From a virus: 64,000 nucleotides of DNA. The position numbers and the translations under genes were made by a program. The notes under the pieces are model-generated. The model made no database searches. It was not told the origin of the DNA and was given only the letters and a program-made list of their open reading frames with translations. Location of the stretch: IMG/VR virus record IMGVR_UViG_3300045988_097942; one strand, 5' to 3'. Positions 43,468-50,009 of the stretch are shown piece after piece. Numbering within the stretch: the first letter of the stretch is position 1; every line of letters starts with the position of its first letter.

Positions 43468-44679
43468 TTATCCATTATGGTACTTGAGTAAAAACTCATT
43501 GGAAACCGCCTTAAAGCTACGGGCTCCGTCCTGAGACCTGAATACTAGACCTTCACGCATTCCGCCATCAATTACAGACTTGTCAGTTGCAATCGCAAGT
43601 AACTCCTCTACAGTATCAGGTAATACGAAATGCTCGTCAACGATAGGTACCCAAGGAATACCATATTCAGCTAAGATTTCTTTAGCCTCTACAGAGTTCA
43701 AACGACCTCTATCAGAGAAGATAAGATTAAATCCTACGAAGTCATGTTCTTTAAGACCATATTCCCTCTTTTGGATTCCTACACCATAAGTCTCACCCTG
43801 GAGAGTTGCCCACTCAAGGTTATACTTCTCAACTAAAGCTGCGAGTACGTCCTCAAAATGATACTTTTCAGCCATTCCAGTGTAGACATTAGTCTCATAA
43901 TAGCAACCCTTATCTGGTTTGTCAAAGACTACATTACGAGAACAGATGTAAAATTCGTGTTTCCTTCTACCCGTTCTACGATATGTAGCAGTAGTAGAAG
44001 TTCCATCAATTTTCTCTGTTGCAATCCATTCAGACTTATCTTCAAGAATCCAAGTCATGTTCTGTACACGCTCTTCATCTGTCTTAGAAACCCAGCTCGG
44101 CCATCCGTTCTTCTTATCTTTCTTTTTACCAAAGAGTGCAAACATAACTTTACGTCCCCACTCACGTCTCATCATCCATTTTGCCCAAGGCTTCTTAAAG
44201 ATATTAGGACGACGCTGTGCCATCTTCTTGTATTTATCAACAGAAGCTGCTTTTCTTTTATTATCTTCCTCAACCGCGTAGGTAACACCGATAACCTCGG
44301 TTACACCCTCATGTTCAATATCTACTCCTTTAGAAATCTGGAACTTAAGACTCTGAACCCAAGAAGGAACTTCAGAGTTCAAAATAAAGTCATCAAGTGC
44401 CATAAGCAGACCCTGAGAAATAACAGTTCCCTTAAAGTATTTCTGAGTTTTAACTTTAAAGTGCTTAGACTCAAGAAACATGAACGGCTCCTTTTCTGGC
44501 ACTTTAGAGTCAATTTCAAAATAGATAGCATAGTCTCTAACTTGGAACTGACCTTTCTTTACCATAATTCTCCATCCACCAACATGAGCAAGTTCAACTC
44601 TATCAGCTCCGGCGATAGGAGAAATGCCATCAATCTTTACTACATATGCTAATTCTCTTTCTCCCTTTGCATTTAACAT
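43468..44679 (-). CDS. ATP-dependent RNA ligase (Rnl family)
   Basis: Motif I EKIDGTS, motif IV EGLVFR and motif V FKAVSNEFLLK. A distinct DNA ligase is encoded elsewhere in the window. Confidence 0.65.
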   Translation of the reverse strand: MLNAKGERELAYVVKIDGISPIAGADRVELAHVGGWRIMVKKGQFQVRDYAIYFEIDSKVPEKEPFMFLESKHFKVKTQKYFKGTVISQGLLMALDDFILNSEVPSWVQSLKFQISKGVDIEHEGVTEVIGVTYAVEEDNKRKAASVDKYKKMAQRRPNIFKKPWAKWMMRREWGRKVMFALFGKKKDKKNGWPSWVSKTDEERVQNMTWILEDKSEWIATEKIDGTSTTATYRRTGRRKHEFYICSRNVVFDKPDKGCYYETNVYTGMAEKYHFEDVLAALVEKYNLEWATLQGETYGVGIQKREYGLKEHDFVGFNLIFSDRGRLNSVEAKEILAEYGIPWVPIVDEHFVLPDTVEELLAIATDKSVIDGGMREGLVFRSQDGARSFKAVSNEFLLKYHNG

Positions 44680-44713
44680 ACTACATCTTTCCTTTCCTTT
44701 TGTTTATATAAAT

Positions 44714-44742
44714 ATTATAACATTTATTTTTTTAAAAATCAA
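44714..44742 (-). promoter_or_regulatory. Sigma70-like promoter TTGATT-N17-TATAAT
   Basis: Minus strand reads TTGATTtttaaaaaaataaatgtTATAAT. Confidence 0.6.
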
Positions 44743-44755
44743 TAATATAATTTAT

Positions 44756-45346
44756 TTATATTTCAATTTCATATGCCGCAGCAAGAGTATCATTGACACT
44801 TCTAATATTTTCACGAAGAACATAAAGAATATCTGCTAACTCAGGATATTTATATTTACCCTGTTTTAAAACTGGAAGTAACATATTTGCTGTTTCTTTT
44901 ACATTTTTTTCAATTCTTTCTTTTTCAAATGTTCCCGCCATAGTTCGCAAATTCATATAACGGTCAAGACCTTTTACTACTAAAGCCCGCCTATTATGAA
45001 GAAGATTTTTAAAATATCTAGCTTTTGTTACTTGTTTATCTTCTCCTTCAATACATTCAATAGTCATATATCGAACAGCATCTTTTACCTTATCACAAAC
45101 AGGCAGCTCTCTATAATTTACACCACAATCTTCAATTACATCATGCAATAAGATAGTCGCAATAATACAATCATCTTTTACTCCAAGAGCAACTGCATAA
45201 CAAGCCATTTGTAAAGGATGAATAATATAAGGAGTAACGCCATCTTTTCTGAATTGTCCTTCATGCTTTTCTTTTGCATATCCAAGAGCTTTCATACTCT
45301 CAGTAAAACCAGCGCCAGTAATATACCCTTTTAAATAAGTGTACAT
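44756..45346 (-). CDS. HD-domain (p)ppGpp hydrolase-like protein (RelA/SpoT HD, Mesh1-like)
   Basis: HPLQMACYAVALGVKDDCIIATILLHDVIEDCG matches the SpoT HD-domain signature. Confidence 0.65.
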   Translation of the reverse strand: MYTYLKGYITGAGFTESMKALGYAKEKHEGQFRKDGVTPYIIHPLQMACYAVALGVKDDCIIATILLHDVIEDCGVNYRELPVCDKVKDAVRYMTIECIEGEDKQVTKARYFKNLLHNRRALVVKGLDRYMNLRTMAGTFEKERIEKNVKETANMLLPVLKQGKYKYPELADILYVLRENIRSVNDTLAAAYEIEI

Positions 45347-45389
45347 TTTTTCAACATTATATTCAGTTATAATATTACTCCTTTCTTAT

Positions 45390-47931: not shown

Positions 47932-48275
47932 ATGAAAACAACTCCTTTATTTTTTCTTTAAAAGTTTTTCTACAATTTAACAATACAACTCCATAAGTAG
48001 TATTTTTATTTAGAATAGATATAATTGTATTAATTTCATCCATATCTTCTACATATAAAGTTATATTATGATATATTGTATATGGTTTATTGTCTGTTTT
48101 AATAATATTTGTTTTAAGTTGAGCTAAAACTCCAAAAACAATGCGTTAGTCTCTTCCACAATCAGTATATTTAATTGTTGCTATCATTTTCAATTATTCC
48201 TTTTTATTTTATATAAATATTATATCATATTTTTTTTAAAAAAATAAATGACAAGTATAATACTTGCCATTTATT

Positions 48276-49082
48276 TTAAATAAAAACTAATTTTTCAATA
48301 TATTGTCTACCATCCCATTTAAAGATAGGAATTTCATTATCAATTATCCATTCTTTTTCATTTCTTATACAACAGCTTCCACGTTTTTGAGTAGTTGGAT
48401 AATTATTCCAATTAATTCCGCGTAATTCATGTAACATATCCTGTCTTTGATTACAGGTTTTACCTTGGAGTTCATTATGACTAAAATTAGCTTGTCCAAC
48501 CATCTGAATTGAGTTGCGTGTGGCATCAAGTTGCCGCCAATAAATAAGATTAGCTACTTCTTCTTTTGGAATATTAAAACATCTGGAATCAAACATCGCG
48601 CCTTTTTCGATAGCTCTCTGATATACATCATTGAGTTTCAAAAGGTCTGCATCAACCTCTTCATTTGTACCACCTTCATCCCAGTCAGGAAAAGTCAAAC
48701 GTCCCCACTCATCTACATTCTTTACAAAAGCACGATTGAACGCCATAGTAGCCATAGATGCAGAAATACTACAAATCTTTTGTACTTCATTATCAAACCA
48801 TGCGGAAGTATTTAATTCTTTGTAATCAACCAAAATGAGAGTAATTTCATCTGATTGAGTGTACCCAAAAACGCATCCCTGAATATTTTTACAAAGATAT
48901 TGCATTGTTTCTTGCATAGATTTAATAAGAATTTCATCAAATGGTTTTGCCATTCCTCTTGTAAAAGTATGAAAAGCTTTACCATCAATGCGGATAGCCA
49001 CAGGCATTCTCCGCACTAATTTTGTTTTAGGCACAGCTTCATAGATTTTCATTCTCTTACCTAATTCATCATGAACTGGCAT
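48276..49082 (-). CDS. Thg1-like protein (tRNA-His guanylyltransferase family, 3'-5' nucleotidyltransferase)
   Basis: RIDGKAFHTFTRG...KPFD...YTQSDEITLIL matches the Thg1/TLP catalytic core. Confidence 0.8.
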   Translation of the reverse strand: MPVHDELGKRMKIYEAVPKTKLVRRMPVAIRIDGKAFHTFTRGMAKPFDEILIKSMQETMQYLCKNIQGCVFGYTQSDEITLILVDYKELNTSAWFDNEVQKICSISASMATMAFNRAFVKNVDEWGRLTFPDWDEGGTNEEVDADLLKLNDVYQRAIEKGAMFDSRCFNIPKEEVANLIYWRQLDATRNSIQMVGQANFSHNELQGKTCNQRQDMLHELRGINWNNYPTTQKRGSCCIRNEKEWIIDNEIPIFKWDGRQYIEKLVFI

Positions 49083-49085
49083 ATT

Positions 49086-49241
49086 TTAGTCCTCCCATTC
49101 AATAGTTACTAAAACACCAGGCATACCTTCTTCAAAATCGTAATCAACTTCATATTCAATATTATCACGTTCAAGATTTTCAAGAAATGCATTTACAATC
49201 TGACAATCTTCAGGTTCTTTAATTAAAAATAATCTTGTCAT
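49086..49241 (-). CDS. Hypothetical small acidic protein (51 aa)
   Basis: Not in the track (under 60 aa). Has an RBS; its ATG overlaps the upstream stop (ATGA) and its stop lies 3 nt before the Thg1-like start. Confidence 0.4.
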   Translation of the reverse strand: MTRLFLIKEPEDCQIVNAFLENLERDNIEYEVDYDFEEGMPGVLVTIEWED

Positions 49242-49561
49242 TCTCTTTCCTCTATCCTTTCAGTTTCTCTTTTATGTCCTTTAGGACAAATCTCATATTT
49301 TATATGAATATATCCATCTACATACTCATTTCCGCCACTGTTTATAATATCTTCATATACACAAATTCGAGCTTTCTTTCTCTCAGAATCATGAAGAAAA
49401 GACTTTGCTAAATAATAATCATCACATTCTTTGCAATATTTATATGTGCCATCTACAACACCTTTAGCAAATTCAATATCTTTTGCTAATTTAGATAATT
49501 CTTTTAATTGAGCTTCTTTGGTATGATAAGAATTTAATATATTTTGAACTACTTTATTCAT
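49238..49561 (-). CDS. Hypothetical zinc-finger protein
   Basis: CKECDDYY...CPKGH. Confidence 0.35.
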   Translation of the reverse strand: MNKVVQNILNSYHTKEAQLKELSKLAKDIEFAKGVVDGTYKYCKECDDYYLAKSFLHDSERKKARICVYEDIINSGGNEYVDGYIHIKYEICPKGHKRETERIEERE

Positions 49562-50009
49562 TTTGCCCCTTTAAATATTCAGTAACAGCCTGATTTATAA
49601 GTTTACCATCTGCCTTACCTTTCAATTCAGCCATAGCCGCCTTCATCATCATGCCTTTTGATAAAGTAGTATTATTCTTATTAGCTTCTCCAATGCGGGC
49701 AACCGCGGCTTGTATCGTTACATAATCCATCATTTTAGGAGCTAATTCTTCGATATATTCCATGCAAATTTTATATGCTTCTAATATATCTGGACGTTGT
49801 GCAGGACAAGTATCTATTTGCTCTTGACATATTTTCTTTGACTTAAGGATTGCTGCGTCTACAATCTCTTCAGATATATTGTCTTTACAACCTTGTGCGA
49901 TTGCCATATTTTTTGCACAAGTAATCATATCAGAAATAACGTCTTTTCTCACACGATTTTTGCTCTTCATAGAGTTTATTAATTCTTGATGTAATGCTTC
50001 AAAAGTCAT
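49554..50009 (-). CDS. GatB/YqeY-domain protein
   Basis: C-terminal LKGKADGKLINQAVTEYL matches the YqeY/GatB C-terminal signature (GRADGKLVNQIV). Confidence 0.7.
   Translation of the reverse strand: MTFEALHQELINSMKSKNRVRKDVISDMITCAKNMAIAQGCKDNISEEIVDAAILKSKKICQEQIDTCPAQRPDILEAYKICMEYIEELAPKMMDYVTIQAAVARIGEANKNNTTLSKGMMMKAAMAELKGKADGKLINQAVTEYLKGQNE

Follow-up and report, generated by a model that had tools for sequence, protein, structure and literature searches.

An uncultured phage of about 140–150 kb, represented here by a 64,000-nucleotide stretch of DNA (IMG/VR record IMGVR_UViG_3300045988_097942; hereafter, the window), encodes an RNA ligase that we assign to the Rnl5 class, a Thg1-like protein (TLP) and a YqeY family protein, all within one 7.6-kb stretch (50.6–43.0 kb) with terminator-like hairpins at both ends. 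We consider it fairly probable that this region belongs to a modular island for the repair of RNA, probably tRNA, located among the accessory genes of the phage; any single repair step is less certain than this general interpretation. An earlier interpretation made from the sequence alone (the sequence-only reading) had proposed an extended toolkit for tRNA and RNA repair, and the genomic context backs this idea: on related and unrelated phage contigs alike, the genes are again found, in varied orders, in the company of a polynucleotide kinase, phosphoesterases and RlaP-type nucleotidyltransferases. Apart from the placement of YqeY, our finding restates the published picture of phage RNA repair. 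The one point that is new, and only modestly so, is that within this lineage YqeY repeatedly heads the cassette, in a position immediately upstream of either the TLP or a phosphoesterase. The endolysin domains (Glucosaminidase, Amidase_2, SH3_3) and the GC content of 32% fit a Gram-positive host, perhaps a Firmicute.

Organization of the region

All open reading frames (ORFs) between 43,000 and 50,700 are on the minus strand. Profile searches were done with Pfam, using curated cut-offs, and with PHROGs, whereas structured RNAs were searched for with Rfam. The unit comprises the following features, with protein lengths in amino acids (aa):

43029–43054 (−): intrinsic-terminator-like hairpin (11 pairs, 5 GC, T-run), downstream end of the unit
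43058–43402 (−): VG64-family ORF, just before the 43029–43054 hairpin
43468–44679 (−): ATP-dependent RNA ligase assigned to the Rnl5 class, 403 aa (PF09414 and PF21189; phrog_968, E 7e-60)
44756–45346 (−): stand-alone Rel/SpoT-type HD hydrolase (HD_4), small-alarmone-hydrolase-like (PF13328, 37.9 bits)
47095–47931 (−): calcineurin-like metallophosphoesterase, 278 aa, with a GDIHG motif (PF00149, 44.2 bits; phrog_1649)
48241–48277 (−): terminator-like hairpin (17 bp, then a U-run) across the TLP stop codon
48276–49082 (−): TLP of the bacterial type, 268 aa (PF04446; phrog_4717)
49086–49241 (−): orf51, acidic, 51 aa (80% identical copy in locus L046)
49238–49561 (−): orf107, zinc-ribbon-like (CxxC...CxxxH), 107 aa, between YqeY and the TLP (83% identity in L046)
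49554–50009 (−): YqeY family protein, 151 aa, first annotated gene of the unit (PF09424; phrog_1460)
50606–50637 (−): terminator-like hairpin after the gene of a major-vault-protein-like (MVP-like) protein, upstream boundary of the unit
50607–50579: promoter-like site downstream of the 50606–50637 hairpin

The four genes from YqeY to the TLP are arranged as in an operon. YqeY overlaps orf107 by 8 nt, orf107 overlaps orf51 by 4 nt, and the orf51 range stops 3 nt before the TLP start codon, so that the four genes look co-translated. The hairpin at 48241–48277 (fold of −16.8 kcal/mol, z = −7.2, equalled by 0 of 200 shuffles) would, as a terminator-like element, end the transcription unit running from YqeY to the TLP. 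Apart from this hairpin, only an ORF of 46 aa and a promoter-like −10 element were found in the 344-bp gap after the TLP. Neither orf107 nor orf51 matched a Pfam family, and orf107 had no PHROG match either. The Rfam scan of the intergenic gaps returned only tRNAs and an unrelated RT-2 RNA.

A bacterial-type Thg1-like protein with intact catalytic residues

That the region encodes a Thg1-like protein, as the sequence-only reading had claimed, is borne out by family profile, alignment and fold alike. The protein matches PF04446 (Thg1) with 104.6 bits (cut-off 29.2) and phrog_4717 with an E-value of 1.9e-88, and its closest solved relative is the TLP of Bacillus thuringiensis (BtTLP; 4KGK, E 9.4e-61). 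A Foldseek search with its AlphaFold2 model (predicted local distance difference test score, pLDDT, 84.6; predicted template modeling score, pTM, 0.84) returned 32 matches at E ≤ 0.001, all of them Thg1/TLP chains, with 4KGM/4KGK at the top (E ~4e-25). The fold match to BtTLP comes at 38–42% identity, and the phage protein shares with it both the carboxylates and the NTP-binding/activation residues. The alignment with 4KGK runs without gaps over residues 5–119 at a numbering offset of +3, and it places D33, D78 and E79 of the phage protein at D30, D75 and E76 of BtTLP. These residues correspond to D29, D76 and E77 of hTHG1, and D30 and D75 bind the two metals (PMC3701042). The catalytic carboxylates, which the earlier interpretation had left to a proper alignment, are thus in place. 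The BtTLP residues that serve activation and nucleotidyl transfer (E12, R28, K43, K99, R131 and R147) correspond to E15, R31, K46, K102, R167 and R183. In an alignment of 39 sequences (37 IMG/VR homologs, the window protein and BtTLP), D33, D78, E79, E15, R31, K102, R167 and R183 are kept throughout (39/39), and the position of K46 is occupied by K in 32 sequences, R in 6 and E in 1. Judged by these residues, the window TLP is a member of the templated 3′-5′ RNA polymerase family, with its predicted catalytic residues intact.

The phage-encoded protein differs from BtTLP in an extra helical insertion of 30–45 aa (residues ~117–160) between palm and fingers, which AlphaFold2 modeled as a confident helical hairpin. 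The insertion is present in most aligned phage homologs, where it is hypervariable and ranges from 0 to ~70 aa, whereas BtTLP has a short connecting segment. The HINNLYN motif, a eukaryote-specific element of anticodon recognition whose His stacks on the anticodon base G36 (PMC6471195), is not present in the phage TLP: in the alignment to yeast Thg1 (5XOX), ATRNSI stands opposite THINNL. We therefore class the protein as a TLP and not as a tRNAHis-specific Thg1 proper. It also has a methionine (M194) at the position of BtTLP M158, in contrast to the Asn of eukaryotic enzymes. Bacterial TLPs favor 5′-truncated tRNAs (PMC3061083, PMC6471195).

An RNA ligase of the Rnl5 class

The claim of an Rnl-family RNA ligase also holds: the 403-aa protein matches PF09414 (RNA_ligase; 73.7 bits, cut-off 27) over residues 217–392 and the PHA02142 OB domain (PF21189; 70.7 bits) over residues 10–93 at its N-terminus, and the motifs quoted in the earlier interpretation are present, as they are in the other two proteins. 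The best solved relative is NgrRnl of Naegleria gruberi (E 2.4e-30), the structural type example for Rnl5, aligned over both domains, with R8, D57, R204, K223, D225, E296, E376 and K390 of the phage ligase corresponding to NgrRnl R4, D53, R149, K170, D172, E227, E312 and K326. By the roles described for these positions (motif I lysine nucleophile, motif III/IV glutamates, motif V lysine and a gamma-phosphate arginine; PMC7261155), K223 would be the nucleophile, E296 and E376 the two glutamates, K390 the motif V lysine and R204 the gamma-phosphate arginine. The phage ligase has the OB plus nucleotidyltransferase architecture and the catalytic residues in common with NgrRnl (5COT) and DraRnl of Deinococcus radiodurans, and on these grounds we assign it to the Rnl5 class. 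It differs from both in ~60 extra residues of the inter-domain linker and in sitting in a phage kinase/phosphoesterase cassette.

This class assignment bears on what the ligase may do. Rnl5 enzymes seal duplex nicks with RNA as the 3′-OH strand (PMC4408790, PMC7261155). The sequence-only reading had assigned the ligase to breaks of tRNA; the RNA ligase part of this proposal stands, but the enzyme is not an anticodon-loop ligase of the T4 Rnl1 type, and with the Rnl5 class repair of tRNA breaks is not a given. The ligase might instead serve DNA metabolism by sealing nicks in which the 3′-OH strand ends in ribonucleotides, as in RNA-primed or ribonucleotide-containing phage DNA. Such a function would agree with the sealing by NgrRnl and DraRnl of duplex nicks with a 3′-OH RNA strand, RNA-DNA junctions included, and with the radiation sensitivity of Deinococcus without DraRnl (PMC4408790, PMC5397189), and RNase H and gyrase genes do lie a few kb past the cassette in three related loci (L047, L048 and L063). 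We nevertheless regard it as very unlikely, since the ligase is tightly and conservedly linked to a polynucleotide kinase and a phosphoesterase, the classic healing-and-sealing trio, and the phage has its own ATP-dependent DNA ligase (PF01068, 27344–28483) in the replication module, amid Pol III alpha, DnaB, gyrase A/B, RecJ, NrdD and dUTPase. The presence of this separate enzyme, together with the family assignment, also speaks against the RNA ligase being a second DNA ligase, an alternative that the earlier interpretation had raised.

A YqeY family protein at the head of the cassette

The third protein had been described as carrying a YqeY/GatB C-terminal domain. Its YqeY family membership is firm, though through PF09424 (48.6 bits, cut-off 27; profile positions 2–143 of 143) and not through the PF02637 profile that had been named. 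The homology to B. subtilis YqeY (1NG6; E 7e-6, residues 3–146) is full-length and includes the C-terminal helix bundle with its KGKADG.LIN motif. The PHROG label of phrog_1460 is "tRNA amidotransferase". GatB and Deinococcus GlnRS carry a YqeY-like tail that binds tRNA (PMC2811023, PMC1865053). Bacterial yqeY is usually co-transcribed with rpsU, the gene for bS21 (PMC13374519, PMC12054373), whereas the phage gene lacks this link, the small ORFs flanking YqeY giving no match to the bS21 family (Ribosomal_S21), and instead heads an RNA repair cassette in the phage lineage. It takes this position in L039, L046, L047, L048 and L063, and in L063 it abuts the TLP gene. This recurrence offers a small new lead on an uncharacterized family.

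The genes might support translation rather than repair. According to such an explanation, the TLP would add G-1 opposite C73 to a tRNAHis, either of the phage or of the host after miscutting by RNase P, YqeY would act in ordinary translation, and these genes together with the tRNA array would tune translation to an AT-rich phage genome. Databases do label TLP genes "tRNA-His guanylyltransferase" (phrog_4717 included), TLPs are capable in vitro of adding G-1 opposite C73 (PMC6471195), and the co-transcription of bacterial yqeY with rpsU points the same way. Moreover, the phage carries at least eight tRNAs: those noted earlier in the window are real and number four, and the overlapping contig L062 has eight, the window's four included, so the array extends beyond the window. 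However, neither the window nor L062 has a tRNAHis, and among 37 loci with related TLPs only L030 has one within 10 kb, where G-1 is already encoded opposite C73. All tested bacterial and archaeal TLPs favor truncated tRNAs over tRNAHis, the phage enzyme is devoid of HINNLYN, no bS21-like ORF adjoins YqeY, and the neighbors are healing and sealing enzymes. Taking all this into account, we find the translation-support explanation quite improbable.

Conservation of gene order in related loci

Homologs of YqeY and the TLP with 60–95% identity are abundant in metagenomes, many of them on contigs of 110–150 kb, and the exact TLP protein is present on Logan contigs of run ERR414233. At the DNA level, megablast found no match to the region in a collection of 50,697 phage records. 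The abundance in metagenomes and absence from this cultured-phage collection indicate that the window derives from a common uncultured phage lineage. Gene orders in the loci that we compared (L numbers) are as follows:

L046: gene order as in the window
L047, L048: compact order, MVP, YqeY, Metallophos, small ORF, Rnl5, two ORFs, kinase, Metallophos_2
L039: the compact order, with a Pol-beta nucleotidyltransferase before and PIN-PhoH after
L040–L042, L063: YqeY paired with the TLP (the two abut in L063) a short way upstream of kinase and phosphoesterase, without the ligase
L050, L052, L053, L065: TLP and Rnl5 in other orders
L064, of a different backbone: TLP, HNH, RNA ligase (PF21189 and PF09414), bona fide RlaP and kinase

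Nine loci (L039, L047, L048, L050, L051, L053, L054, L055 and L061) have the ligase, the zinc-finger ORF, the kinase and Metallophos_2 in this order, which holds down to 41–48% ligase identity (L055 and L061). This depth of conservation defines a core cassette; what varies is the addition of the TLP, YqeY, HD_4 and NAD+ genes. Both the window and the loci L040, L046, L050, L052, L053, L063, L064 and L065 have the TLP within ~10 kb of the cassette, in varying orders. Synteny of Metallophos_2 with the kinase is seen in 11 related loci and also in L063, and PIN-PhoH is syntenic in L039, L051, L054, L055, L061 and L063. A metallophosphoesterase of the 278-aa type directly follows YqeY in L039, L047 and L048, and a Pol-beta nucleotidyltransferase immediately precedes YqeY in L039–L042. 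The most constant partner in the cassette is the 132-aa zinc-finger-like ORF, which adjoins the kinase also in L040, a locus that has no ligase.

Neighborhoods of TLP genes in other phages

We also considered a wider set of 37 IMG/VR loci encoding TLPs of 35–68% identity. BLAST with the window proteins found Metallophos_2 in 12 of these loci, NadE in 5, PncA in 4 and the kinase in 3. Since BLAST under-counted RNA ligases (1 locus compared to 5 ORFs by Pfam), we relied instead on a Pfam census that is independent of similarity to the window and covers 150 same-strand ORFs within 3.3 kb of the TLP in 28 non-redundant other phage loci. The families counted were Metallophos (12/150 ORFs), Metallophos_2 (6/150), RNA_ligase (5/150), NAPRTase and NAD_synthase (4/150 each), AAA_33 and bona fide RlaP (3/150 each), and CCA-adding enzyme, Isochorismatase and Macro (2/150 each). 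NAPRTase and NAD synthase are thus among the commonest TLP neighbors in other phages. In a control set of 98 ORFs more than 5 kb away from the TLP, helicase/restriction-type families lead, with Metallophos_2 at 3, Metallophos at 2 and the ligase at 1. The near-versus-far enrichment corresponds to an odds ratio of 2–4 (p 0.001–0.07, depending on how unseen single hits are counted) and is indicative only, as the census loci are not independent.

The same data bear on the idea that there is no pathway at all, and that independent accessory or counter-defense "morons" have gathered in a region tolerant of insertions, which separates the replication module from the MVP/SPFH genes. Among relatives, the TLP, HD_4 and four NAD+ genes come and go as blocks, the NAD+ genes interrupt the ligase–kinase cassette of the window, and genes of unrelated functions (MVP-like, SPFH and PARG/macro) are interleaved. 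Yet the core order survives to the low ligase identities of L055 and L061, and the TLP stands again beside an RNA ligase, RlaP and a kinase on the different backbone of L064. Furthermore, RNA repair families top the unbiased census and are fewer beyond 5 kb, and the genes from YqeY to the TLP look translationally coupled through overlaps and abutment. A mere gathering of unrelated genes therefore seems to us unlikely.

As for frequency, the sequence-only reading considered a Thg1-like enzyme in a phage unusual. This view does not hold up: TLPs occur in 164 of the 50,697 phage records, with hosts including Bacillus, Prevotella, Caulobacter, Mycobacterium, Vibrio, Aeromonas and Fusobacterium, most are already annotated, they have their own PHROG (phrog_4717), and they were reported in phages in 2021 (PMC7824862). 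Rnl5-type ligases are present in 333 records. YqeY is rarer, with 7 phage records by tblastn, of which five are short and unannotated (three human fecal and two labeled Listeria phage).

Partner enzymes and genes downstream of the ligase

From the distal end of the cassette up to the ligase, the genes are as follows:

36712–37944 (−): PIN-PhoH protein (PF02562 and PF13638), distal end of the cassette
38369–38920 (−): Metallophos_2 phosphoesterase, the kinase partner (PF12850, 33.7 bits)
38920–39411 (−): AAA_33 P-loop kinase, polynucleotide 5′-kinase-like (PF13671, 78 bits)
39413–39811 (−): zinc-finger-like ORF, 132 aa (phrog_1257, E 4e-11)
39886–40629 (−): NadE NAD synthase
40607–41224 (−): NadD-like adenylyltransferase
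41217–42431 (−): PncB NAPRTase
42443–42922 (−): PncA nicotinamidase

The kinase/phosphatase pair that had been recognized beforehand is real and corresponds to the AAA_33 and Metallophos_2 proteins at 38920–39411 and 38369–38920. The best solved relatives of the kinase are Pnkp1 (4XRP), T4 Pnk (1LY1) and the kinase domain of C. thermocellum Pnkp (4GP6). Kinase, phosphoesterase and RNA ligase are co-located, with 4 kb of NAD+ genes between them in the window and contiguously in nine related loci. PncA, PncB, the NadD-like protein and NadE (39886–42922) make up a full four-gene Preiss-Handler NAD+ salvage set between ligase and kinase. The metallophosphoesterase at 47095–47931 is a candidate RNA 3′-end healing enzyme. 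The HD_4 protein, found again in L046 and L065, has matches to Rel/SpoT hydrolase domains (E 4e-13) and to MESH1 (~1e-6).

A possible repair pathway

If the region is indeed an RNA repair island, its enzymes could act together as follows. Host abortive-infection nucleases or tRNA-modifying toxins would injure tRNAs. The metallophosphoesterases would remove 2′,3′-cyclic or 3′-phosphates from the ends, the AAA_33 polynucleotide kinase would add phosphate to 5′-OH ends, and the Rnl5 ligase, with K223 adenylylated by ATP, would seal duplex-held 3′-OH/5′-P nicks. Lost 3′ nucleotides could be put back by the Pol-beta nucleotidyltransferase. The TLP would activate the 5′-monophosphate with ATP or GTP and, templated by the 3′ strand, refill the 5′ nucleotides missing from the acceptor stem; the 5′-phosphate that it requires would be supplied by the kinase. 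The HD_4 hydrolase could remove the 3′-pyrophosphate that toxSAS toxins put on CCA ends, as small alarmone hydrolase (SAH) enzymes are able to reverse pyrophosphorylation of tRNA CCA (10.1101/2021.04.30.441581). Finally, YqeY, a homolog of the tRNA-binding tail of GatB and GlnRS, may hold or present tRNA to the repair enzymes. Family membership, intact catalytic residues, an operon-like layout and repeated co-localization are what we show, whereas the substrates, the sequence of steps, any role of YqeY and the heavy host attack on tRNAs that the sequence-only reading suggested are inferred.

A more specific version would make YqeY a dedicated tRNA-binding accessory of phage tRNA repair, handing damaged tRNAs over to the products of the genes downstream (TLP, phosphoesterase and ligase), and would have the TLP answer a still-undescribed host defense that removes tRNA 5′ nucleotides. 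We rate this version as rather improbable; if true, YqeY and the bacterial-type TLPs would each gain a first physiological role. Bacterial-type TLPs were found in 2010 to repair 5′ ends in vitro (PMC3061083, PMC6471195), and the location of a TLP inside a kinase/phosphoesterase/ligase cassette, beside NAD+ salvage and counter-defense genes, is circumstantial support for repair during infection. Cultivable TLP-bearing phages of Bacillus, Fusobacterium, Vibrio and Aeromonas could be possible test systems; Bacillus phages FADO, Goe8 and BSP38 and Fusobacterium phage Fnu1 each have a TLP gene.

A number of observations weigh against the repair island interpretation. We know of no host defense that truncates the 5′ ends of tRNAs, and we found no biochemical or infection data on phage TLPs in the literature consulted. 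The acceptor stems of all four window tRNAs are fully paired over 7 bp, thus giving no sign of an intrinsic need for 5′ editing. The partnership of the genes is also incomplete: the TLP is not in L039, L047 and L048, the ligase is not near the TLP in L040 and L063, and in the BLAST of the 37 wider TLP loci a close Rnl5 homolog appeared in 1/37 and YqeY in 0/37. In Brevibacillus phage Sundance and in L043, YqeY has no RNA repair neighbors, so its link to repair is not generalizable beyond the lineage. The census enrichment is of modest size, and synteny inside one phage lineage may be plain inheritance. Lastly, Rnl5 enzymes are duplex-nick sealers and not anticodon-loop ligases, and their natural, physiological substrates are uncharted (PMC5397189).

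Comparison with known RNA repair systems

The putative pathway follows the same heal-then-seal logic as T4 Pnkp with Rnl1, which counters the PrrC anticodon nuclease, and as the bacterial Pnkp-Hen1 and Pnkp1-Rnl-Hen1 systems. There are, however, several differences. In the window, separate genes encode the kinase and the phosphoesterase, the latter enzyme is of the calcineurin type and not of the HAD type, and the ligase belongs to Rnl5 rather than to Rnl1 as in T4. No Hen1 was found among the window ORFs scanned against Pfam, whereas the TLP, YqeY and HD_4 hydrolase are extras beyond the T4 and Pnkp-Hen1 systems.

A closer parallel is the jumbo-phage repertoire described by Iyer et al. 2021, which includes RNA ligases, polynucleotide kinases, phosphoesterases, RlaP and the CCA-adding enzyme, with Thg1 "only sporadically present", and which stands alongside phage tRNAs and NAD+ salvage as counter-defense (PMC7824862). 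The phage of the window, at ~145 kb, is under the jumbo range of that set, and its TLP is physically embedded in a ligase/kinase cassette. YqeY, present in the window, has 0 mentions in that study (PMC7824862).

Flanking genes and the tRNA array

Upstream of the unit, the window encodes:

50651–53164 (−): MVP-like protein, 837 aa (major-vault-protein shoulder and repeat domains)
53555–55108 (−): SPFH/flotillin protein, adjoining the MVP-like gene
55749–56792 (−): Pol-beta-superfamily nucleotidyltransferase with a C-terminal CodY-like winged helix-turn-helix (phrog_388, E 1.5e-14; HTH_CodY)
56795–57520 (−): third metallophosphoesterase
57546–58316 (−): PARG/macro protein of the microbial type
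60315–61799 (−): DUF2828/DUF7788 protein
From 62026: tRNA array

The ORF at 55749–56792 stays under the cut-off of PF10127 RlaP (18.7 bits, cut-off 23, E 0.0015; NTP_transf_2, E 0.0016), so we call it only "RlaP-like", a Pol-beta nucleotidyltransferase. The third metallophosphoesterase, the PARG/macro protein and the DUF2828/DUF7788 protein all lie between the repair genes and the tRNA array. The last of these had no match among solved structures; it may be related to Ro/TROVE proteins. The MVP-like protein is conserved at 59–96% identity across the phage lineage, and its matches in the phage collection are limited to three huge uncultured phages (38–39%).

As to the tRNAs, 5′ editing of the kind seen in amoebal mitochondria was considered and dropped, given the fully paired acceptor stems. 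Two of the array tRNAs, at 62553–62625 (−) and 62803–62873 (−), are tRNA-Gly(UCC) and tRNA-Thr(UGU), in the same island as the HD_4 hydrolase. The toxSAS toxin FaRel2 is reported to act specifically on tRNAGly and tRNAThr, which it pyrophosphorylates (PMC11245113); the match between these targets and the two tRNAs accompanying the hydrolase may be a coincidence. Within the tRNA arrays of L054 (2634–2984) and L061 (3298–3586), a few kb from the Rnl5 cassette, there is a transfer-messenger RNA (tmRNA), and one tRNA of L061 carries the amber-reading anticodon CUA. In L010, the genes for tRNA-Gly (1314–1387) and tRNA-Ile (1388–1458) abut with zero spacer, an arrangement that could give end-truncated products needing repair.

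At the other end of the window, the RT-2 RNA (RF03077; 94 bits, with the gathering score at 40) occupies positions 81–315 (+), directly upstream of an ORF with a reverse transcriptase (RT) domain and overlapping its start. This ORF (PF00078; 304–1080 (+), 258 aa) looks short and may run on in the ORF at 1105–1458.

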